From the IMG/VR virus record IMGVR_UViG_3300044833_000066, positions 1-60,246 of that record: DNA of 60,246 nucleotides; one strand, given 5' to 3'. The notes under the pieces are model-generated. The model was not told the origin of the DNA. It did no database searches and saw only the letters and a list, made by a program, of their open reading frames with translations. This DNA comes from a virus. Taxonomy: Duplodnaviria > Caudoviricetes. Made by a program: the position numbers and the translations under genes. Positions 41,939-60,246 of this stretch are shown here, in pieces; the stretch's first letter is position 1; every line of letters begins with the position of its first letter.

Positions 41939-43009
41939 TCAGACCAGGACTTTGCTGCCGACGTAGCCGACCGCCATCCACCCCTGGTTCTCGATCATGA
42001 CCGCCTTCCACCAGGCCGTGCCGGCATAGCCGCGCTGGCCCAGCGGGTCGGATTTGGACTTTTCGCCCGGCGGCAGGAACGTGGGCGACAGGCTGTCCTT
42101 GCCGCGCAACGCGATCTGCCCCCATGCATCCTGCGCCGTCACGAGGAACGGATAGACGTCGATCGAGACGCCGGTGGTGGAATAGAGCCCGGTCGCACCG
42201 ATGGCCGCGCCGCCGTCCTGGATCGATGGCAGGTCCGGCGAGGTGACGAACCGGAACCGCTCGCACTTGCCGATTTCATTCGCGATCGGCGAGCCGGTGG
42301 CATACGCCTCGGTCGGCACGAAATTCGGCAGGTCGCGAATGTCCGGCTCCAAATCCGTATGGCAGTAAACGGTATATCCCTCGGCGACGGGATCGGTGGC
42401 GAAGTTCGGGCCCGCCTTCAGCACCTTGTTGACCGGCTTGCCGTGGTTGGCCTGCAGGTTTTTCGCGATCTTGCGCACCATGCCGAGCGTCATCCCGCCG
42501 GCGACTGTAGCGATCGACGTCCCTGCGCCGCCGTAGTAGGGGTTGGTGGACCCGCGCAGCGCGCCCCAGATGATCATCTCGTTGACGAACGTCACCCGCT
42601 CGCCGATCTGCTCGATCATCGCCTTCGGGATGTCGTCCTCATACAGATCATAGGTCTTGTCGGTAAACCCGTAGAGGCAGCCGAACTGCTGCACGACGAC
42701 GGTGATATCCAGCGGCACGATGCTGTCGGGCGCCGGCGTCACGCCCTCCTGGATCTGGTGCGCCTGGGTGATGATGTTGCCGCGGTCGCCGGTTGCGTTC
42801 TGGAAGAACTGGTTTTGCGAGGACGCCGAGGTCGCGGTCGCGCCATACGGCAGCCAGCGGCGAGCTACATATGTGTCGCTGCTGTTACGAGGCATCGGTA
42901 TTTGCCTCCCCGTCTTTCCCAAAACCTCTAGAGGGACAGCATGAGCAAGTATCTCGCCCTTATACTTGTTTATCCGACCGGGTGTCAAAGTGAAGTTCTG
43001 CATCGTCAT
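41939..43009 (-). CDS. major capsid protein (N4 gp56-like)
   Basis: EGVTP, YCHTDLEPDIRDL, SKSDPLGQRGY motifs. Confidence 0.9.
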   Translation of the reverse strand: MTMQNFTLTPGRINKYKGEILAHAVPLEVLGKTGRQIPMPRNSSDTYVARRWLPYGATATSASSQNQFFQNATGDRGNIITQAHQIQEGVTPAPDSIVPLDITVVVQQFGCLYGFTDKTYDLYEDDIPKAMIEQIGERVTFVNEMIIWGALRGSTNPYYGGAGTSIATVAGGMTLGMVRKIAKNLQANHGKPVNKVLKAGPNFATDPVAEGYTVYCHTDLEPDIRDLPNFVPTEAYATGSPIANEIGKCERFRFVTSPDLPSIQDGGAAIGATGLYSTTGVSIDVYPFLVTAQDAWGQIALRGKDSLSPTFLPPGEKSKSDPLGQRGYAGTAWWKAVMIENQGWMAVGYVGSKVLV

Positions 43010-44094: not shown

Positions 44095-44319
44095 TTACGG
44101 TGCGCCGTCATCATCGCCGGTCATGATTGGCCGGTCCGCATCGAGCGCGATGAGACGCTTCAATGCCTTAATTTCGCCGCGTATCGACGCGGTTTCATAC
44201 TCGCTCATGGCCGCGTCATTGCGGACGCGCAGGTCGGCGAGCCGATCCGCGAGATGCCCCACCAGCCGGCGCCAGAGACCCTGCGTCTTCTCGTGCTCGG
44301 TGAGTTGGAAGTCGATCAT
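44095..44319 (-). CDS. conserved small protein after portal
   Basis: LRVRND...TASIRGEIKALK motif; ATGA-coupled. Confidence 0.75.
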   Translation of the reverse strand: MIDFQLTEHEKTQGLWRRLVGHLADRLADLRVRNDAAMSEYETASIRGEIKALKRLIALDADRPIMTGDDDGAP

Positions 44320-46859
44320 TGCGCCGGACCTTGCTCAAACGCGCGCCCATTCCCAGACCGCCCCGGCACCTGGATCGGCGGCCTCGCACCACGCGGCGGC
44401 TGCGCCAGCGCCGGCTTCGGCACCGGATTGTGGTGCTTGTGCAAATCGACTTCGCGATCGGCCGCATTCAGTTCGCGCTGCGCCTGCAGGGTCATCGCCG
44501 TCTTCGCCAATTCTGCCTTGGCCTGGTCGAGCGAGATCCCCCGACGATTTGCGTAGTCCATCATCGCCCGCTGATGCTCCATTTCAAGCGCGTGCGCCTT
44601 GATGGTCAGTTCGCCATGCACGCGGGTCTGCTCGACCTGCACCTTGCCGCCCTCGAGTACATGCGCCGCGGCAGCGATCTGCCCCTCCGCCTGCGTCGTC
44701 TGTTGGTCCGCCGTTTGCTTCATCACCCCGAGCTTGATCTGCGCATCGGCGGCGATCTTGGCGACCGTCACGGCCGGCTGTTCCGGCGGCGGGTTGGCGT
44801 CGATCTTGGCCTGTTCTTCCTCGGAGTACATCACATCGTCTGGGTTAAGCCGCTTCGATTTCAGGAACAACCGCGCCCAGCGTTTCGGGTCTATCCCATA
44901 GATCGGATTGGCCGCCATGTTGCCCATCTGCGCAATGCTCTGGTCCTGGATGGCGCGCTCGACCAGCGCGATGGAGCCGTGCGCATCGATCTGGAATTCG
45001 CCCTTTTCCTCGTTCGGCACGCCCGGATCGAGCAGCAGCCATTCGTAATACTGCCGGATCACCGGCTCGGTGATGTAGTCGTCGAACGCATAGCCGATCG
45101 AGCGCAGCAACTGGTTCGCGTTGTTGTTCTGCAGCTGCGCCGCGCCGAACGTGTCCGGCGTGGTCGCCCCCGACTGGCCCTGCGTGATCAGCGGGATCGA
45201 GGTGGTTTCCTCGGCGAACCGCTCGCCCAGCGTGATGATCTGCATCAACTCATTCGTCACATTCGGGATCGCGACCGCCATGAACGACTGGCGGACATCG
45301 GCCGCGCCCTCGTTGGTTTTGTACCAAATCTTGTCCGGCGTGATCGTCCAGTTTTCGTCCGCCGGACGGATCGCCGCCTCATCGATGACGAACTGCGATC
45401 CCGCGCTCTTGCCTGCGTTGTTCAGCAGCGCCCGCAGCGATGCGTTAGTGACCTTCTGCGGCGTCCGCATCTGCTCGGCGACACCGACGCCAGCCCAGTG
45501 CGACGCCCGCCGCTGCCATGGCATCGAGTGATACGGAAACGAGCCGCTGTCGAGCGGATTGATCGCCGCCCGCACAACCGAATCATTGATCAACGTGACG
45601 ATGACATGGCTCTCGCTGCTGTCGTCGTCGGCCTGCTCCGGCGGCTTGCCCGCCGCCTGGTCGATCGCGGCCATTTCGTCGCGGGTCAACGAGCCGTAGA
45701 AATACCAGACCTCGAAGCGGCCCTTTTGCTCCGCGCCGACGCGCCGATCGCCCTCTGAATTGACCTTATTGGGGCCCTCCTCGAGCACCTTGTCGAGCTG
45801 ATCCTTGATGTAGCCGGGCAGCCTCTTCAGCCCGCGCACCTGCCGCGCCGACATATGGTCGCGCTCAAAGATAAAGTCGCCGTCGTGGATGTTCTCGCCG
45901 CACGCCGGATCCGGAAAGATGTTCCACGGATCGACCCAGATCGCCGCCGGGATGATTTTTTCCCGAATGAGCAGTTCGACACCGCCGGCCTTTTTCTCGA
46001 CGACAGCCATCACTCGCTTTGACTTCGGTGTGGGCGCCTTGAGCACGCCGACGCCGATCCGCGCCGCGTCGGCGATGACCTTGCGAATCTCGGCGCGGTA
46101 TTGCGTCTCCACCATCCAGTCGTAGATCCGTGTTTCCGCCGCCTCGGCCTTTTTGCGCGCCTTCTCGATCGCCTCGACGGCAAAGTCCTTGACCGTCAGC
46201 GGCACCCGTGGCGGCGCAGGAGCCGCTTGCGCCCCGGCTGGACCAGGTGGGGCGGGCGGGCCGCCAGGCGGCGCAGGAGCCGCCCCGGGCGGCGGCGCTG
46301 CAGGCGGTGGCGGTGGCGGTGGTGGCGCAGGCGGCGGAGCAGCCGCAGCCGGTGGCGCCTCGCCAGGCTGCACCGGACGGGTCAGCGGCATGCCCAACCC
46401 GCTATGCACGACCTGGCTGTCGTCCTCCTTCGCCGCCAGCAATTCCGGCACCGGCATTTCGCTGAAGCTGAACGCCTTGTCATCTGCGGGCAAAAGGATC
46501 TCGCCCAACTTGGCGACGCCGGCGTCGACGTACCGCGAGGTCAGCCGCAGGAACACGGTCGAGCGGTGATCGGTATTTTTCGACTTGCGCCCGGTCGTGA
46601 CCGGACCCGTCATCGATGTGGGCTTGGCCCAACGTGCATTGACGAATTCATGCCGGTTGGCGTCGTCGATGCCGAGATAGGCCTCCTCGCACTCGGTCCA
46701 TGTCGACTCAATGCCGGACTGACCGCGCGCCCCCTTGGCCTCCTCACGCTTGGCCGCGATCTCGACGCCGATCGCCGCCAGCACCGACGCCGGCGCATCC
46801 ATGTGCGGCGCGAGGATGTCCCGGACTGAGTCCGGCAGGTCGGAGAGGCTGTCGCTCAT
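44316..46859 (-). CDS. portal protein (P22/N4-like) with Pro-rich insertion
   Basis: AARIGVGVLK, VDPWNIFPDP, WAGVGVAE, C-terminal coiled coil. Confidence 0.85.
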   Translation of the reverse strand: MSDSLSDLPDSVRDILAPHMDAPASVLAAIGVEIAAKREEAKGARGQSGIESTWTECEEAYLGIDDANRHEFVNARWAKPTSMTGPVTTGRKSKNTDHRSTVFLRLTSRYVDAGVAKLGEILLPADDKAFSFSEMPVPELLAAKEDDSQVVHSGLGMPLTRPVQPGEAPPAAAAPPPAPPPPPPPPAAPPPGAAPAPPGGPPAPPGPAGAQAAPAPPRVPLTVKDFAVEAIEKARKKAEAAETRIYDWMVETQYRAEIRKVIADAARIGVGVLKAPTPKSKRVMAVVEKKAGGVELLIREKIIPAAIWVDPWNIFPDPACGENIHDGDFIFERDHMSARQVRGLKRLPGYIKDQLDKVLEEGPNKVNSEGDRRVGAEQKGRFEVWYFYGSLTRDEMAAIDQAAGKPPEQADDDSSESHVIVTLINDSVVRAAINPLDSGSFPYHSMPWQRRASHWAGVGVAEQMRTPQKVTNASLRALLNNAGKSAGSQFVIDEAAIRPADENWTITPDKIWYKTNEGAADVRQSFMAVAIPNVTNELMQIITLGERFAEETTSIPLITQGQSGATTPDTFGAAQLQNNNANQLLRSIGYAFDDYITEPVIRQYYEWLLLDPGVPNEEKGEFQIDAHGSIALVERAIQDQSIAQMGNMAANPIYGIDPKRWARLFLKSKRLNPDDVMYSEEEQAKIDANPPPEQPAVTVAKIAADAQIKLGVMKQTADQQTTQAEGQIAAAAHVLEGGKVQVEQTRVHGELTIKAHALEMEHQRAMMDYANRRGISLDQAKAELAKTAMTLQAQRELNAADREVDLHKHHNPVPKPALAQPPRGARPPIQVPGRSGNGRAFEQGPAQ

Positions 46860-49940: not shown

Positions 49941-51320
49941 TCACCCCAGCAAGCCCATCGTTGGATCGGCGTTCTGGAACGCCGGCACCCTAACCTGCGG
50001 CATATCACCGTCGTTCCGGATGCGATCAACAATCTCGGCGAGCCCACCATATGCGTCGGCTCCATGGCTGTTGATGTCGTGCGCCGGGCCGGATGGCTCG
50101 AGCGTCGTCGCCGGCACCACCCGCTTATAGCGCCGCAACCGATCCAAGAGATTACCCGCACCCAGCAACCGATCCGGCCGCTCGGGCGGCGTTTCATGCT
50201 TGCGCGTGTCGATGTAGACCCGCGGAAACATCATCCGCGCGGCCCTGATCCTCGCCTCGGGATCAGAGCGCGGGATCAGCTGCACCTTGCAACCCAACCC
50301 CTCGAGCACCTTCCGCGCGTTGGTGCCGCTGGTCGGATGGTGCTGCACGGCGTCGTGCGGCAGCCAGTCGGTGCCCCATTTGTAGCCCAGCGGGTCCATC
50401 GCCGCGAGCATCTGCGCGTAGGTCAGCCGGTTGTCCTCGATGTAGTTGATGACGTTCAGCGCGCTCGGATGCGGTTTTTGCACCATGATCGCGGTCATCA
50501 GGTCGTTCCAACCCAGATCCCAGATCCGATGCACCGGCAGCCGCGGATCGTACGGGATCGGCCGCGCCCGACCTTCGGTGACCATCTCGATCACCTCGGT
50601 CGCATAGATCGCCCCAGCGACGACAACGCGCGGCTGGCCGTCCCAGATGTTCGGGTATTCGTCCTTCGAGTGGACCAGGTCGTATTGCCGCAACCGCTCC
50701 TGCTCGGGCGACCACCAGCCGCACGACACCGCATCGCGCCAATTCATCTCGACGACGACAGCGCCCTCGGGCACGTTGACGACGAACCGCTCCCATGCTT
50801 CGTCGCTGTCCATGTCGGGGTTGAAGCTCACCCAACACTCGCTGCCCTTAGTGCGGAACAGCGTCGGCAACAGGATCTGCCATGACCGCTTGCGCACGCT
50901 ATGCGCCTCTTCAACCCAAACGATGTCGAAGCCCTCGTAAGACTTGATCGAATCCACGGTCTGATCCGACAGGCCAGTGAACCCGAACAGCGAGTCCTGC
51001 ACCGTGCCGCGGATGGCGTTCTCGGTGACGCGGTAATACTCGCCGAGATCGAGCGCCTTGATCTGATCGACCAACAGCTGATGCACCGACTGCGCCAGCG
51101 ACTTCTGCACCTCACGCGCGCAGAGGATACGCAACGGCTGATGCACGGCAAGCGTCAGCAGCGCGCGAGCGAACGACCACGATTTGAGGCTGTTACGACC
51201 GCCAAACGCCACCTTGTACGCGTGCTGCTCGAGCAGGAACGCGAGCTTGCGCGGCAACTGCAGCCGGACGAGCTTCTCCGCCGGTTTGGCCGCCGCCCGG
51301 CGTTTGAGCGATGCGCTCAT
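49941..51320 (-). CDS. terL: terminase large subunit (PBSX-like)
   Basis: GGRNSLKS Walker A variant, CAREVQKS, WVEEA Walker B, SFNP, WDLG, SHGADA nuclease motifs. Confidence 0.95.
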   Translation of the reverse strand: MSASLKRRAAAKPAEKLVRLQLPRKLAFLLEQHAYKVAFGGRNSLKSWSFARALLTLAVHQPLRILCAREVQKSLAQSVHQLLVDQIKALDLGEYYRVTENAIRGTVQDSLFGFTGLSDQTVDSIKSYEGFDIVWVEEAHSVRKRSWQILLPTLFRTKGSECWVSFNPDMDSDEAWERFVVNVPEGAVVVEMNWRDAVSCGWWSPEQERLRQYDLVHSKDEYPNIWDGQPRVVVAGAIYATEVIEMVTEGRARPIPYDPRLPVHRIWDLGWNDLMTAIMVQKPHPSALNVINYIEDNRLTYAQMLAAMDPLGYKWGTDWLPHDAVQHHPTSGTNARKVLEGLGCKVQLIPRSDPEARIRAARMMFPRVYIDTRKHETPPERPDRLLGAGNLLDRLRRYKRVVPATTLEPSGPAHDINSHGADAYGGLAEIVDRIRNDGDMPQVRVPAFQNADPTMGLLG

Positions 51321-51986: not shown

Positions 51987-52445
51987 CTATCCCACTAGTT
52001 GCACGTTTTTCCGCACGTCGTCGGCCATGCGCGGGCCGGTTCGCACAGCCTGCTCGGCCCGCGGTGCCCCCGCCTCGCCGACGAACTCCACCACCACCCG
52101 CATCGGCGTGTCGGCCGGCTTGCCGTCATCGACGACGATGCGCTCGCTCCACCCCATGCGCGCCTGCTGCCACCACTTAATGGCCTGAAAGTCACCGGCC
52201 TTGATCCGCTTGACGTGCTCGATGATGACCATGGTGTTGAGCGACGTCGCGCCGCTATCCAGTTCCGCACGATAGTGCTTTCGAAGCGTGTTCTCGCTGA
52301 TGCTGAGGGACCGCGCCACGTCTTCCTGACCGATGCCGCCGGCGACCATGACAGAGACCATGTCGCGGCCGGTCTTGGTCGGGACGTGCTCCGGCAGGCC
52401 AGGCTTGCGCCGCGGTTCGCCGGGTTGGCGTTTGCGTTTCGGCAT
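51987..52445 (-). CDS. terS: terminase small subunit
   Basis: HTH ISENTLRKHYRAEL, AIKWW..RMGW, upstream of terL. Confidence 0.7.
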   Translation of the reverse strand: MPKRKRQPGEPRRKPGLPEHVPTKTGRDMVSVMVAGGIGQEDVARSLSISENTLRKHYRAELDSGATSLNTMVIIEHVKRIKAGDFQAIKWWQQARMGWSERIVVDDGKPADTPMRVVVEFVGEAGAPRAEQAVRTGPRMADDVRKNVQLVG

Positions 52446-52873: not shown

Positions 52874-53434
52874 TCAATACTTCTGCGACGGGCCGGTCGC
52901 CGGCGTCGGCGACTGGCTCGCCGAGAACCCGGCGGCGAGCTGGTCGTCGGCATTGCCCGGCGCGCCCTCGGACGACTTGTCCGCCTGCAGGATGTCGAGC
53001 GCGGCCTTCAACGCAGCCCCGATCGAATCAGCCGGAATCCCCTGCGGAGCGGGAGGCATACCGCCGCCAGCGCCCCCAAGCCCACTAGGAGGACCACCAG
53101 CCCCACCAGGAGGACCACCAGCGCCGGCAGCACCACCAGGAGGGCCGCCAGCACCCATGGCGTCGGCATCGTCGTCGGACATGTCACTGTCATCACCGGA
53201 GTCAGGCTCATCCCCCGCGTAGACGGTGTACGAGCCGTCGCCGCCCTTGCAGATGGTGACGACGACATCATCGCCGCCGCCGCTGTCGGTGTCACCGCCA
53301 GGATCGCCGCCAGCCGACGGATCGCCGCCAGCCGACGGATCACCGCCGGCCGATGGATCGCCGCCCAGCATGCCGCCAGCAGCAGCACCGGGTGGCGCAA
53401 CGGACAGTGCAGCGGGGGAAGGTGCTCTTGCCAT
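52874..53434 (-). CDS. Gly/Asp/Pro-rich low-complexity protein
   Basis: GGAG SD; GGDPSA tandem repeats. Confidence 0.65.
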   Translation of the reverse strand: MARAPSPAALSVAPPGAAAGGMLGGDPSAGGDPSAGGDPSAGGDPGGDTDSGGGDDVVVTICKGGDGSYTVYAGDEPDSGDDSDMSDDDADAMGAGGPPGGAAGAGGPPGGAGGPPSGLGGAGGGMPPAPQGIPADSIGAALKAALDILQADKSSEGAPGNADDQLAAGFSASQSPTPATGPSQKY

Positions 53435-53561
53435 GATGTCTCCGATGATCCGATGGTGAATGGGAATTTCGTTGTGGCACGATAATGTAGTTGCAAACGG
53501 CACAGATGCGCGGCATGTGTGCTTTCGCAGGAAACACCTGCTGCAACGAGGAGTTATCCCG

Positions 53562-54101
53562 ATGACCATCGCACTCGAGAGCCTGACCCCGACCCAGCTG
53601 GCCGCGATCTACAACCACCACAGCGACATCCCGGTGAAGAAGTTTGAGAACCGCCAGAAGGGTGCGCGCCGGCTGGCCGCACTGCTGGCCAAGATCGAGG
53701 TCGACCCGGCCGACGCGATCGCCGCGGTGATCCCCTCCGCGACCGCCGATGCCGCCGCGCGCCAGGCCGCGCTTGATGCCGCCTACAACGCGGGATACGC
53801 CGCCGGCCACGCCGACGCGACCAAAACCGCACCGAAGCCGGCGAAGGCTCGCGAACCTCGGGCGATCGCCACCACCCGCGGGATGCCGACCATGACAGCA
53901 GGCAGGAACGCCCGCGACCTGATCATCGCCGCCTGCCGCCGCCCCGAGGGCGCCACATCGGCCGAGTTGTTCGAGACCACCGGCTGGAAGTACTCCAGCT
54001 GGAGCCATCAGATGAAGCTGATCACCAAGAAGACCGGCACCCCGCACGAGATCCGCCGCGTCGACGGCACCACCCGCTACTTCCTGACCGGGAGGGTCTG
54101 A
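53562..54101 (+). CDS. DUF3489-like wHTH protein
   Basis: CRRPEGATSAELFETTGW; same leader as 48.9-49.8 kb genes. Confidence 0.7.
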   Translation: MTIALESLTPTQLAAIYNHHSDIPVKKFENRQKGARRLAALLAKIEVDPADAIAAVIPSATADAAARQAALDAAYNAGYAAGHADATKTAPKPAKAREPRAIATTRGMPTMTAGRNARDLIIAACRRPEGATSAELFETTGWKYSSWSHQMKLITKKTGTPHEIRRVDGTTRYFLTGRV

Positions 54102-55269: not shown

Positions 55270-55484
55270 GCGCCGCATTCCGCGCCGAGCTTGACCGGCT
55301 CGCGCTGTCGCAATCCAGCCTGGCCCACCTCATGCACGAGTTGGGCGACCCGCGCAGCCCGCCGACCATCCTCCGCTCGGTGTCCAATTGGTGCCGCGGC
55401 GTGGTCGCGGTGCCGGGCGAAATGTGGGTGGTTATCAGGCTGCTCGCCGAACGCTCTAACTCCAACGCACGGATGCTCAAATGA
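55266..55484 (+). CDS. XRE-like HTH protein
   Basis: FRAELDRLALSQSSLA...RSVSNWCRG...VPG. Confidence 0.7.
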   Translation: MSAAFRAELDRLALSQSSLAHLMHELGDPRSPPTILRSVSNWCRGVVAVPGEMWVVIRLLAERSNSNARMLK

Positions 55485-55837
55485 CATTCTTCTATTTGGC
55501 GACGCCTTACTCGAAATATCCCGGCGGCCTGCAAGCCGCCTTCGATATGGCCTGCGAACAGACTGCGTTGTTGGTCAATGCAGGCGTTCCCGTCTTTTGC
55601 CCGATCGCACACACGCATCCAGTCGCGATGATTGCTGGAATGGACCCGCTCGATCACACAATCTGGCTCCCGTGCGATCGACCAATGATGGATGCTGCGT
55701 CTGGCATCATTATGGTCAAGGCCGAATCCTGGGAGGAATCCTATGGCATGAAGGTTGAACTTGAAGCCTTCGTTGCAGCGGGCAAGCGCGTTGTGTGGAT
55801 GAAGCCCGGCGAGGTGCCTGCTGAGTTGGCGCGATGA
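55481..55837 (+). CDS. DUF1937 / nucleoside deoxyribosyltransferase-like protein
   Basis: YLATPYS, VFCPIAHTH, WEESYGMKVE motifs. Confidence 0.8.
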   Translation: MTFFYLATPYSKYPGGLQAAFDMACEQTALLVNAGVPVFCPIAHTHPVAMIAGMDPLDHTIWLPCDRPMMDAASGIIMVKAESWEESYGMKVELEAFVAAGKRVVWMKPGEVPAELAR

Positions 55838-55840
55838 CGG

Positions 55841-56731
55841 TCACGCCGCTGCCTTCGCCGACCGCGCCGCCGCCGCCTCGGCGAACGACCGCCCCGACGC
55901 CTCCAGCACCGCCTCGGCGCCGACGAACGCCTGCCAGCGCAGCACACCGACGTCGACGTAGGCCGGCGACAGTTCAATCGCCAGCACGAACCGCCCGGTC
56001 ATTTCACCCGCAATGATCGTCGTGCCCGAGCCGCAGAATGGCTCATACACCGCCTGGCCGACCGCGGAGTTGTTGACGATCGGGCGGCGCATGCACTCGA
56101 CCGGCTTCTGCGTCGAATGGCCGGTGTCGGATTTGATGTGCTCGATCATCCAGACCGTCGACTGCTTGCGGCTGCCGGTCCATTGGCCGGTCGCGCCGAC
56201 CCGCACGGCATAGTCCGCCACCTCATGCTCGGCGACGAACTGCCAATGGTCGTCCTCGCCCTCCTTGACCGCGAGGAACACCGGCTCGTGCTGCCAATGG
56301 TAGTCGCCGCGCGAAATCACCGGACGCGTTTTGACCCAGACGATCTGCGCCCGCAGCTTGAATCCACAACTCAAGATGCTCGAAGCGACGTCCACTCCGT
56401 ACAACGCAGCATGCCAGACATAGGCCACGGTGCCAGGGAACAGCGCCCAGGTGCGGCGCCAGTCTGCCTGGTCGTCATTCTCGAACTTGCCGGTGGCACG
56501 GCCACCGATGGGCGTGCCATCCTGCCTAATTCGCTCGTTACGCCAGTTGGCATCATACTCACCACCATACGGTGGATCGGTCACCATCAGATGCGGTTTG
56601 GCACCGCCCAGCGCTGCTGCGACCGATGCCTCGGTCGTGCTGTCGCCGCAGACCAGCCGGTGACCGCCGACCGGACGCGCCGCGAACGCCTTGCCGCAGC
56701 CGACGCACGTACAGCCGACCTCGCCGGTCAT
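55841..56731 (-). CDS. beta-class DNA methyltransferase B (DPPY, probably m6A)
   Basis: HRLVCGDST, VTDPPY, HSTQKP, EPFCGSGTT; ATGA-coupled. Confidence 0.9.
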   Translation of the reverse strand: MTGEVGCTCVGCGKAFAARPVGGHRLVCGDSTTEASVAAALGGAKPHLMVTDPPYGGEYDANWRNERIRQDGTPIGGRATGKFENDDQADWRRTWALFPGTVAYVWHAALYGVDVASSILSCGFKLRAQIVWVKTRPVISRGDYHWQHEPVFLAVKEGEDDHWQFVAEHEVADYAVRVGATGQWTGSRKQSTVWMIEHIKSDTGHSTQKPVECMRRPIVNNSAVGQAVYEPFCGSGTTIIAGEMTGRFVLAIELSPAYVDVGVLRWQAFVGAEAVLEASGRSFAEAAAARSAKAAA

Positions 56732-57720
56732 TCCGCCGCGACCTGCGCAGCAACCGCCTGGCCGAACGCCACACCGTCTGCCTCGCGCACCGCGACCTGC
56801 CCGGTGAACATCTGCCAACGCTGCACTGCCACGTCGACGTAGATCGCCGCGATCTCCATGCCGAAGCAACTCCGCCCGTTCATTTCCGCCGCGATGACGG
56901 TCGAGCCCGCGCCACAGAACGGCTCATAAAGCACGCCGCCGACGTCGCTATACGCCCGCAGCATCTCTGCCGGCAGCGCGACCGGGAACACCGCCGGATG
57001 CTTGACCTCCATCCCGCGCGCCTTGTGCCGCATGATCCGCACGACGCTATCGGGCCAATGACTGACCTCGTCGTCGGACAGGCTCAACAGCGCCATCATG
57101 AATTCATCGAGCCGCCGGAGAACGCGCACGACGCTATCGGGAATCTTGTGGGTTTGCAGAGACTTCCCCGGGCTGCTTATGCCGCTCATTGTTCCGTCAC
57201 GCCGCCGCATTCCATTGCCGTGGTCATTGAACTGAATTGACGCCGCAAGTTTTGCCTTTGTCTTGCGCGCCCGCTCGGCGACCCTGTTGAAATGGAAGAT
57301 GAACTCGTGCGCAGGCGCGAGGCGCCCGTTCCAGTCACCAGGCAGACCTGCGCCCTGGTCCCACACATACCAGCCGAAGCGCCGCCAGCCCTGCGACCGC
57401 ATCCAATCAATCCACCCGCCCCAGTACGGCATCCACTCGCCGTCGCGATGGATCATCCCGAGATTGACCAGCACCTGGCCGCCAGGACGCATCGGCAGAA
57501 GCGCGAACACACCCTGCATCAACGCATCCCACGAAGCGATCGACGCCGTGTAATCCCGCTGCTGGCCGTACGGTGGCGAGGTAAAGCAGAGATCCGCAGC
57601 GACGCCCGCCATCAGCACGCCGACATCCGCCGGCTTGGTGCTGTCGCCGCACATCACGCGATGGGCCCCGACCGGCTCGGCATCGAACACCGCGCCGCAC
57701 CCAGCACACGCGCACCTCAT
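56728..57720 (-). CDS. beta-class DNA methyltransferase A (SPPY, probably m4C)
   Basis: HRVMCGDST, FTSPPY, HPAVFP, EPFCGAGST; ATGA-coupled. Confidence 0.9.
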   Translation of the reverse strand: MRCACAGCGAVFDAEPVGAHRVMCGDSTKPADVGVLMAGVAADLCFTSPPYGQQRDYTASIASWDALMQGVFALLPMRPGGQVLVNLGMIHRDGEWMPYWGGWIDWMRSQGWRRFGWYVWDQGAGLPGDWNGRLAPAHEFIFHFNRVAERARKTKAKLAASIQFNDHGNGMRRRDGTMSGISSPGKSLQTHKIPDSVVRVLRRLDEFMMALLSLSDDEVSHWPDSVVRIMRHKARGMEVKHPAVFPVALPAEMLRAYSDVGGVLYEPFCGAGSTVIAAEMNGRSCFGMEIAAIYVDVAVQRWQMFTGQVAVREADGVAFGQAVAAQVAAE

Positions 57721-58322
57721 GCCCGCTTGACGCTCTGCACCAGCTGGCAGTGCGGACACGTCACCTTGCCGCCCAGCAGCCAGACGTCGCCAGGCTGCGA
57801 CACCGGAACCTCCGGCACCGGCGGCACATCGTCGGGATCGGTGAGCCCCACCTTGTCGCCAAACAGCCCCGCCAATTCGCCGGCATCAAATCCGATCAGC
57901 GACAGATCAAACCCGTCCTCGCGCAACGCGCCCAACTCCAGCCGGAGCAGATCCTCGTCCCACCCGGCATCGAGCGCCAGCTTGTTGTCGGCAATGACGT
58001 ACGCCCGCCGCTGCGCCGCAGAGAGGTGCGACAACTCCAGCGTAGGAACCGTCTCCATGGCCAGCTTCTGAGCCGCCAGGACTCTGCCGTGCCCCGCCAC
58101 GACCCCGTTTTTGCCATCGGTCAGGATGGGATTGGTAAACCCGAACTCCCGGATCGACGCCGCCAGCTTGTCGATCTGCGCCGGCGAATGCGTGCGCGGG
58201 TTTTTGTCGTACGCGACCAGACTGTCGACCCGCGCCACGACGTACGCCGGGAACCCCGGATCGGCAGGCGCGACGACTGGCGCCGGCGCCTTGGCCCGAC
58301 TCACTGCCGGCTTTTTGGTCAC
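57717..58322 (-). CDS. ParB/Srx-like N-terminal domain protein (MTase-associated type)
   Basis: NPRTHS..QI..LAASIREFGFTNPIL, AGHGR, IADNKLA, GDVWLLG. Confidence 0.9.
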   Translation of the reverse strand: MTKKPAVSRAKAPAPVVAPADPGFPAYVVARVDSLVAYDKNPRTHSPAQIDKLAASIREFGFTNPILTDGKNGVVAGHGRVLAAQKLAMETVPTLELSHLSAAQRRAYVIADNKLALDAGWDEDLLRLELGALREDGFDLSLIGFDAGELAGLFGDKVGLTDPDDVPPVPEVPVSQPGDVWLLGGKVTCPHCQLVQSVKRA

Positions 58323-59505: not shown

Positions 59506-59721
59506 GTGAAATACGCCATCGCCAGCGGGTATGGGGAAATTCTCTTTTTAACGACCAACGATACGGTAACCGAGCAGGCGGACGATCCCGCCATCCAGAC
59601 CTTCGATCGCTATGACGCAGCCCTCGACTGGATCAGCCGCCGATCGCGGTCCTCCCGCGTGCTGTGCGCGCTATCGCCGATCGTCTGTCCCTACCCCGCG
59701 ATAGGAGACGACCACCGGTGA
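59506..59721 (+). CDS. hypothetical protein
   Basis: AAGGA SD; coupled to next gene. Confidence 0.5.
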   Translation: MKYAIASGYGEILFLTTNDTVTEQADDPAIQTFDRYDAALDWISRRSRSSRVLCALSPIVCPYPAIGDDHR

Positions 59722-60246
59722 GCGTGCTGCGCAGGCTGACCGACTACAGCGATCCGAACTCCTGGGGATCGCGCATCCGCCGCCGCCGCACCGCGCAGCT
59801 GCGCACGATGATCGAAACCTACTCCCGGCGCCAGCCCGGGCCGGTGCGCATCATCGACATGGGCGGCGAGGCGTCATACTGGCAGATTTTCGGCGATGCG
59901 TGGCTGGAAGCGCACCGGGTCAAAATCGATCTGGTCAACCTCTACGACGAAAAACTGCCGGTAAACCCGAACCCTCTTGTGTATTCGCTGCGCGTGGCGG
60001 ACTGCTGCGACCTGAGCGACATTGCCGACAAGTCGTATGATATTGCCCACAGCAATTCCGTGGTGGAGCATTTGACCAACTGGCGGCAGATGGAGCAGTT
60101 TGCCCGCAACGCCCGCCGGGTGGCGCGGAGCTATTACCATCAGACACCGAATTTTTGGTTTCCGGTCGAGCCGCATTTCGGGTTCGTCGGGTTCCAACTG
60201 CTGCCCGAGAGTATGCGCGCCAACCTGAGTCTGCGCCGGCCGCTGG
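59718..60246 (+). CDS. class I SAM-dependent methyltransferase (partial, runs off window)
   Basis: IIDMGG, YDIAHSNSVVEH, QTPNFWFPVEPHF; AGGAG SD; absent from ORF track because no stop codon. Confidence 0.8.
   Translation, partial: MSVLRRLTDYSDPNSWGSRIRRRRTAQLRTMIETYSRRQPGPVRIIDMGGEASYWQIFGDAWLEAHRVKIDLVNLYDEKLPVNPNPLVYSLRVADCCDLSDIADKSYDIAHSNSVVEHLTNWRQMEQFARNARRVARSYYHQTPNFWFPVEPHFGFVGFQLLPESMRANLSLRRPL

Follow-up and report, generated by a model that had tools for sequence, protein, structure and literature searches.

The phage record examined here (IMG/VR record IMGVR_UViG_3300044833_000066; "the window" below means its whole length of 60,246 bases, estimated to be 95% complete) carries three tightly coupled minus-strand genes at 58322-55841 which, from their open reading frames (ORFs) and translations, encode in that order a ParB protein and two DNA methyltransferases (MTase A and MTase B). 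Sequence comparison confirms that ParB and the MTases are a genuine, conserved split of the common single-chain ParB-MTase fusion. In the window, the chain is cut between GDVWLLG and HR, and each new end has gained a Cys knuckle. We consider it likely that the genes form a split fusion operon in which the ParB tail docks on either MTase, the knuckles probably share a zinc, and the catalytic bodies are exchangeable. In the mechanism that we propose, the ParB tail would dock non-covalently on MTase A or MTase B, with GDVWLL pairing antiparallel with HRLVC, as in the fusions, and with the proline-rich linker of ParB lying over the C-terminal YVDV..RWQ.F module of the MTase. The two knuckles would meet at the seam, where they would probably share one zinc through two Cys from each chain. 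One ParB adaptor would serve two or three enzymes, new catalytic bodies would be brought in by recombination, flanked by a head and a C-terminal module that stay constant, and the operon would act in methylating phage DNA, perhaps during packaging, against host restriction.

A conserved break at the fusion joint

ParB (P0001; 57717..58322, with all coordinates on the minus strand unless a plus sign is given) is a stand-alone protein of the ParB/Srx fold, 201 aa long from a GTG start, that ends in GDVWLLGGKVTCPHCQLVQSVKRA. As the original prediction had it, the protein stops just after GDVWLLG (residues 178-184; 57771..57791), the last element common to the fusions, with an added CPHC knuckle (C189 and C192; 57747..57758). 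Its stop codon overlaps the start of MTase A (P0002; 56728..57720; 330 aa) in an ATGA at 57717..57720, and the stop of MTase A overlaps the start of MTase B (P0003; 55841..56731; 296 aa) in a second ATGA at 56728..56731; the DNA thereby bears out the coupling claimed for both MTases. MTase A starts MRCACAGCGAVFDAEPVGAHRVMCGDST, with the layout MRCACAGCG..HRVMCGDST, and MTase B starts MTGEVGCTCVGCGKAFAARPVGGHRLVCGDST, its head reading MTGEVGCTCVGCGK..HRLVCGDST. A knuckle matching that of ParB had been reported at both starts and is present (CACAGC with C3, C5, and C8, 57697..57714, in MTase A; CTCVGC with C7, C9, and C12, 56696..56713, in MTase B), but each head holds three Cys (CxCxxC) where two had been assumed.

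Both enzymes match PF01555 well over its cut-off of 26.7 bits (77.6 bits for MTase A and 70.8 bits for MTase B), and a scan of the whole record found exactly these two N6/N4 MTase genes. The beta class of these enzymes is marked by its motif order, with motif IV, (D/S)PPY, N-terminal and motif I, F.G.G, C-terminal. In MTase A, motif IV is SPPY (residues 48-51; 57568..57579) and in MTase B it is DPPY (residues 52-55; 56567..56578), as first described, while motif I, near the C terminus, reads EPFCGAGST and EPFCGSGTT, respectively. As a rule of thumb, SPPY goes with N4-methylcytosine and DPPY with N6-methyladenine; NCBIfam gave only sub-threshold matches for the two proteins, to adenine MTases. 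MTase B distantly matches the solved structures 2zie (a putative modification methylase), 8urk/9c3u, and CcrM 6pbd (E values of 5.6e-9 to 1e-6), with matches confined to residues 114-267, the C-terminal part that binds S-adenosylmethionine, and the Cys head outside every one of them. A homologue search with residues 1-40 of MTase B only returned five candidates, none of them significant.

ParB matches the ParB families of PHROG at 1e-49 and 2e-48 and the fusion family phrog_498 at 4e-54. It narrowly misses the gathering score of PF02195 (23.4 bits against a cut-off of 26.3), which is exceeded by its stand-alone relatives P0070 and P0092 (26.5 and 30.7 bits), and a sequence search of solved structures found no chain matching it at E 0.01 or better. 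The core of its AlphaFold2 (AF2) model (residues 28-135; 57918..58241; pLDDT, the per-residue confidence, of 86-95) is ParB/Srx-like (ParB-CTPase-like) and in Foldseek its predicted fold matches chains of ParB, Noc, KorB, pNOB8 ParB, and sulfiredoxin (probability 1.00, best E value 4e-5, 22 chains at E 0.001 or better). This core contains the motifs NPRTH and AGHGR, and N41, R43, H45, G77, H78, and R80 are invariant among 10 stand-alone ParB relatives; on our reading of the alignment, AGHGR and N.R.H are equivalents of ParB box II and box I.

Single-chain fusions (PHROG 498, AmM-1 gp67, AcaML1 Gp24 and Gp25) have the same ParB/Srx domain, a linker of the form ..TDPDD.P..P..PVS..GD.W.LG, and the same beta-class MTase with an HR..CGD first strand and a C-terminal YVDV..RWQ.FTG module. 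That such fusions run through GDVWLLG-HR as one chain holds for AmM-1 gp67, whose joint reads GDLWLMGPHRLVCGDST, and for Gp24 (a fused relative of MTase A) and Gp25 of AcaML1, whose joints read GDIWRLGEHRLICADS and GDVWRLGPHRLVCGDAT. On the phrog_498 profile, ParB residues 31-186 cover positions 39-201, and MTase A and MTase B cover positions 199-441 (3.5e-39) and 199-447 (1.2e-69). P0167, a fused database protein of 455 aa, shares 81% identity with ParB over residues 22-185 and 70% identity with MTase B over residues 21-296. The similarity ends at G184 of ParB and G22 of MTase B, so that this fused relative has no counterpart of the 16-residue ParB tail, of MTase A as a whole, or of the 21-residue head of MTase B. 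The joint GD.W.LG.HR..CGD runs without a Cys insert in fused phage proteins and in 78 of the top 80 relatives of ParB from viral contigs. Six other ParB relatives (P0052, P0073, P0091, P0113, P0133, and P0056) end soon after HR..CGDS..., with several Gly in a row (GGG/GGGG) in place of the G..AD/PH of fusions; these stops could be poly-G slippage or phase variation, or an assembly error.

With ParB as the query and no profile, a search of 1.84 billion representatives, its best 150 matches sorted by their tails with no motif filter, yielded stand-alone proteins of three tail classes. Class-1 tails, the window type, read GD.WLLG..V.CP.C followed by 9-14 residues (P0007, P0016, P0019, and P0041); class-2 tails hold a complete four-Cys motif (CxxC..CxC); and class-3 tails are without GD.W.LG and have a C-terminal CPxCG(H/L/F)EF. 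All 10 aligned ParBs (classes 1 and 2, plus the variant P0129) keep both C189 and C192. As a DNA pattern, the class-1 tail is found at 10 loci (1 viral, 9 metagenome), of which 9 are split and 1 is re-fused (L088), and the genes after ParB in the nine split loci start [C/H]xCxxCG..F.A.P...HR(L/V/I).CGD. Across other split loci the ParB/MTase A junction takes the form of overlaps of -8, -4, or -1 nt or gaps of +16 or +333 nt. Behind class-2 ParBs (L008 and L028), the following MTases (two) start at ..HRLMCGDST, without a Cys head.

When the MTase head motif was instead used as the query in viral contigs, with ParB left unconstrained, the 120 matches fell into 108 viral loci, and 21 were real MTase heads. 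A CPxC-tailed ParB (GD.W.LG..V.CP.C) lies just upstream in all 19 of the head loci with enough DNA, a count that leaves aside L225 and L301, where the upstream DNA is too short. These loci differ from those of the first pattern because their tails read GDLW. In genome contigs, the pattern GD[VI]WLLG..V.CP.C gave no loci, and the GDLW pattern gave two loci from bacterial metagenome-assembled genomes of two different phyla, with the same pairing of tail and head. Besides these two, the pooled set with the window included has 28 loci with 22 distinct architectures and 40 MTases, of which 39 have a CxxC head; many of the 28 loci are related, and the counts are not of independent events. At one locus (L312:1666-1800), the ParB tail, GDLFLIPSKTVPPRTVVTCPHCDCEQEV, has three Cys and an extended spacer and is paired with the head CKCEACGKPFEAEPVDRSIHRLKCGD. 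Whether Arg or Glu precedes the head Phe seemed, by reading only, to be linked to the tail type (RLTDV or PLE.AI.K), perhaps through shared ancestry.

Among the best 120 relatives of MTase B, the head is present in 8, all of them complete stand-alone proteins starting 19-25 residues before HR, and in none of the 111 with a fusion-type joint (a tally in which P0158 is counted with the heads and P0252, a truncated fusion, with the joints, the fragment P0159 lacking the region). A scripted count of head against joint type gives a Fisher p value of 2.4e-9 with relatedness ignored. The half-sites thus track splitting (19/19 tails, 8/8 heads, 0/111 fused), which is the pattern that the original prediction had proposed to look for. 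P0158 reads DPLY in place of DPPY, and both it and the first MTase of L213 may be decaying copies.

One proposed adaptor and exchangeable catalytic bodies

Two head-bearing MTases stand behind one ParB at all seven loci of the first set with enough downstream DNA, the window included, and the second set, from the reciprocal search, has the same one-ParB layout, with three head-bearing MTases in L311. The sharing of one ParB provides a plain rationale for the split. AcaML1, in contrast, carries two complete fusions in tandem where the window has one ParB before two enzymes.

A comparison of DNA between two metagenome contigs, L089:7700-10100 (minus strand) and L093:40-2400, supports, at the sequence level, a natural exchange of catalytic bodies behind a constant head. 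Their identity starts midway in ParB, takes in the rest of ParB and the entire first MTase, and extends into the second MTase for its first 33 codons, which comprise the knuckle and HRLVCGDSTDAGA. After codon 33 the bodies of the second MTases are unrelated, one with DPPY and the other with SPPY, and the contigs are alike again from ..PIYVDVA..RWQ.FTG and onward downstream. The next ORF in L089, starting MRGRKPLPSHLK..., is presumably the small terminase subunit. In L088 (11163-12707), a single ORF of 514 aa contains both a CPRC tail knuckle and a CTCAHCG head knuckle, with 19 residues from the tail CxxC to the first head Cys; no other single ORF in the 319 loci and 276 proteins surveyed combines the two knuckles. 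Its DNA equals that of the split locus L090 up to ..CPRCKRLT, after which comes a different, in-frame cassette with its own internal ATG.

Among paralogous MTases, the heads have a median identity of 58-61%, compared to about 40% for the bodies. We considered that heads might co-evolve with their own ParB tail and dropped the idea, as head identity is 61% within operons and 58% between them and there is no homogenization within an operon.

Predicted docking and a putative shared zinc site

Docking was modeled for full-length MTase B (alignment A3, 59 rows) with ParB residues 150-201 (A2, 13 rows) and one Zn. The interface score, ipSAE, was 0.88, 0.87, and 0.88 in three runs, compared to 0.00 for the best of three controls; of 80 solved complexes, 58 reach the mark applied to it, as do 2 of 110 mismatched pairs, a calibration that is only rough for unpaired custom alignments with a riding ligand. 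At least 92% of contacts are common to the runs, and the partner pLDDT is at least 82. The top predicted contacts lie between MTase B residues 24-28 and ParB residues 178-183; they join MTase B residues 28, 26, and 24 to ParB residues 179, 181, and 183, respectively, in an antiparallel GDVWLL-HRLVC pair, and the hairpin that is thereby re-formed is one that is covalent in the fusions. ParB Trp181 is predicted to pack on MTase B residues 259, 263, and 276. On the ParB side, the predicted docking peptide is the linker and tail (residues 155-201; 57720..57860), with modeled contacts at residues 155-157, 159-161, 163-170, 173-192, 194, and 196-201; modeled alone, the linker is of low confidence (AF2 pLDDT 57-60). 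On the MTase B side, the modeled contacts lie in the head (residues 3, 5-12, 14, 16, and 18-29, of which 3 and 5-12 take in the knuckle) and in the C-terminal module (residues 256-290, PAYVDVGVLRWQAFVG...; 55862..55966), the predicted second docking part, at residues 256-266, 268-272, 274-278, 280-283, 285-287, and 290. The modeled docking surface therefore coincides exactly with the two parts left unchanged by the exchange between L089 and L093.

A pass in such a model supports binding and falls short of showing it, and we regard docking of ParB on MTase in some form as quite probable. The original prediction had envisaged both a completed beta-sheet and a site built from two Cys of each chain. 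Its wider interpretation fares well as to the conserved split, the predicted re-association, and the one ParB for two or three MTases, and the completed sheet does appear in the model of ParB with MTase B. The pairing of two Cys with two Cys does not, as both knuckles lie in the interface and the model lists no Cys-Cys pair. A search by sequence found no solved complex of this kind, and any "memory" in the model would therefore be of the fusions.

For a putative shared zinc site across the chains, with two Cys from each, we put the chances at about even. CPxC in the tails and CxxCG in the heads are essentially invariant. The first ligand position of the head is Cys, with His in L090, L091, and L321 and Val in L321, and MAFFT sets this position on the conserved Val of the tail; because the position varies and falls on the tail Val, the two knuckles resemble a ribbon divided into two equivalent halves, each with two ligands. 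In favor of a shared site, the head is present only with a two-Cys ParB tail and absent with a four-Cys tail, both knuckles lie in the modeled interface, and L088 holds both in one chain. The AF2 model of ParB has a hairpin around its knuckle (E186-188/E195-197) with moderate confidence; a hairpin around the head knuckle appears only in a low-confidence model of a fragment of L088. An Fe-S cluster in place of zinc was set aside, a zinc knuckle being in better accord with Cys, His, or Val as the first ligand position of the head.

Several observations weigh against the reading of the operon as a docking pair with a shared zinc. Most heads have three Cys or His, which makes five candidate ligands for a four-ligand site, and the tail of L312 has three Cys of its own. 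The neighbors of class-3 ParBs are without a Cys head at 6 of 6 loci in viral contigs, and so a ParB tail knuckle needs no partner knuckle. Pfam searches of the L088 junction and class-2 ParBs at a lax threshold gave only chance-level matches that fall well short of the family cut-offs (Zn_ribbon_3, E 0.3; Zn_ribbon_4, E 0.33), and the 81-residue fragment spanning the re-fused L088 junction folded with a mean AF2 pLDDT of 57.8, a low confidence, from the heads-only alignment A8 (alignments A5 and A6, in which MAFFT places MTase rows over the ParB half, and A7, with head knuckles on the tail knuckle, were left out of this fold). The complex model covers MTase B alone of the two enzymes, lists no Cys-Cys pair, leaves the zinc unscored, and has the rough calibration given above; the halves of split genes tend to pass because they resemble the one-chain form, and its high ipSAE may be a learned likeness to single-chain fusions and not binding of these copies. 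The ParB tail, xVxCPxC, aligns with HRLVCGD(C/S) of the fusions, and part of it is perhaps a remnant of the old first strand. Finally, the relatedness of many loci reduces the weight of the counts, one MTase of the split operons (the first gene of L213) is headless, and the head identities within and between operons carry no co-evolution signal beyond presence and absence.

The class-3 loci themselves (L102, L130, L139, L140, L162, and L169) encode ParBs of 163-235 aa with (C)xCPxCGHEF ten residues before the stop. Their neighbors are a Dcm-like C5 MTase in L130 and L140 and, in L102, L139, L162, and L169, a protein starting ..LKLDWC.HEAA.YA...WHYS that may be Mom-like; some of these neighbors are followed by genes that by their look are presumably terminase genes.

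Docking might instead run through the GDVWLL strand and the linker with the Cys motifs not forming a shared site, the CPxC pairing with that of a second ParB (a zinc hook with two Cys from each) or touching DNA, and the head closing a metal site of its own or serving another purpose. A ParB-ParB hook is conceivable because class-3 ParBs carry a knuckle without a partner knuckle, at those same 6 of 6 loci; ParB proteins are generally dimeric, and solved ParB dimers are among the Foldseek matches. Most heads hold three ligands of their own, and the strongest modeled contacts are strand on strand and the packing of Trp181, not the knuckles. We nevertheless consider this unlikely, as the head occurs only alongside the two-Cys tail and is absent with the four-Cys tail, its first ligand can be Val, which leaves two, and both knuckles are found in the modeled interface and, in L088, in one chain 19 residues apart. 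That the halves form no stable complex at all, the fusion having broken into independent activities with the tail as a decaying HRLVCGDC remnant and the heads as a lineage-specific extension, is very improbable. The tail does align with HR..CGD(C/S) of the fusions, stand-alone ParBs do adjoin unrelated modification enzymes, and loci in which ParB adjoins separate modification genes are already known from the available part of the published description (PMC6536676). Against a decaying remnant stand the invariant Cys, Pro, and Cys in ParBs only 27-32% identical (in rows found by a pattern that requires them), CPxC in 19 of 19 tails reached from the MTase side, heads that are better conserved than bodies, and the ipSAE of 0.88 compared to 0.00 for the controls. 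That the split is not real in the protein, through sequencing error, a pseudogene, or frameshifting at the ATGA to give a single fusion, is hardly credible: L088 shows that both knuckles can occur in one chain, but the split recurs at 28 loci from different samples, every MTase starts with an ATG of its own right at the head, no X-XXY-YYZ heptanucleotide was seen by eye at the window junctions, and we set recoding, pseudogene, and assembly error aside because the junctions vary across loci and place the MTase in different frames.

Known systems and implications

Two parts of this arrangement are already known, namely the ParB-MTase fusion and stand-alone ParBs adjoining modification genes. The definition of the latter as a "ParB-Tls locus" reportedly goes back to Iyer et al. 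in 2013. As described in the accessible portions of two accounts, a phage locus of this type brings together genes for a ParB-like protein, DNA modification, and the terminase large subunit, at times perhaps with ParB and the methyltransferase as one fusion, and the idea put forward is that ParB steers modification enzymes to phage DNA during packaging (PMC6536676, PMC4738411). In the window, too, ParB and then its modification genes precede the terminase genes, all on one strand (in the order ParB, MTase A, MTase B, ..., a TerS-like gene at 51987-52445, and TerL at 49941-51320); in contrast to ParB-Tls loci, a 3.4-kb block on the opposite strand lies between the MTase operon and the terminase genes. 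ParB-directed modification during packaging fits our reading of the operon. Where those accounts, as far as they were accessible, give a stand-alone ParB no physical link to its enzymes, we propose for the window a docking pair of tail and head.

Other phage genes on the minus strand of the window include those for a portal/adaptor (44316-46859), the major head protein (41939-43009), and tail fibers. Another nucleotide/DNA-modification gene at the locus, a nucleoside 2-deoxyribosyltransferase-like gene (55481-55837, +; phrog_355, 4.9e-12), converges with MTase B, their stops being three bases apart. An ORF at 52874-53569 is rich in Gly, Pro, and Asp, with the repeat GGDPSAGGDPSAGGDPSAGGDPGGD and long overlapping ORFs on both strands, and is without a PHROG match. 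A partial ORF open at the window end (59664-60245, +) reads ..IIDMGGEASYW..DIAHSNSVVEHL and is without an NCBIfam match; we presume a resemblance to class-I S-adenosylmethionine-dependent methyltransferases.

Intermolecular zinc sites with two Cys per chain are familiar from the "zinc clasp" of CD4/CD8-Lck and the "zinc hook" of Rad50. The likeness lies in short CxxC-type motifs at chain ends that are incomplete alone, complete when paired, and hold two proteins together; the organisms and folds are unrelated, and the putative site described here would lie where a single chain was once continuous, next to a re-formed beta-hairpin. A full-text literature search found no mention of the conserved cut, the Cys tail and head, the one ParB for several enzymes, or the exchange of bodies, although a prior mention is possible, supplements being outside its coverage.

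By analogy, the operon likely acts in methylating phage DNA against host restriction, because related systems point that way in the parts of the reports available: ParB-Tls loci are tied to modification during packaging (PMC6536676, PMC4738411), ParB-fold/N6N4 MTase fusions are enriched in phages and prophages, with an anti-defense role suggested and NTP binding that varies among ParB-fold fusions (PMC12704722, a 2025 survey), and nicking activity is reported for the ParB domain of the B. cereus "ParB-methylase" Bce_0392 (PMC5512222).

ParB-MTase fusions are among the commonest DNA modification genes of temperate phages, and the split form allows the enzyme to be assayed with and without ParB, a clean route to the role of ParB. 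More tentatively, we speculate that CPxC and CxxCG are halves of an intermolecular zinc ribbon acting as a plug, by which a ParB, probably NTP-gated and DNA-bound, could take any head-bearing enzyme while the bodies are recombined. If the shared zinc site is true, it would be a compact intermolecular zinc ribbon that joins the former halves of one protein, and it would make sense of the sharing of one adaptor by several enzymes and of the swapping of methylation specificities, as cassettes, against restriction. If the plug is true, DNA modification enzymes would possess a natural split-protein docking system that is portable and whose head and tail of about 20-45 residues each could serve as a small docking pair in protein engineering, and the plug would provide the first physical mechanism for the recruitment of enzymes by the ParB of ParB-Tls loci.

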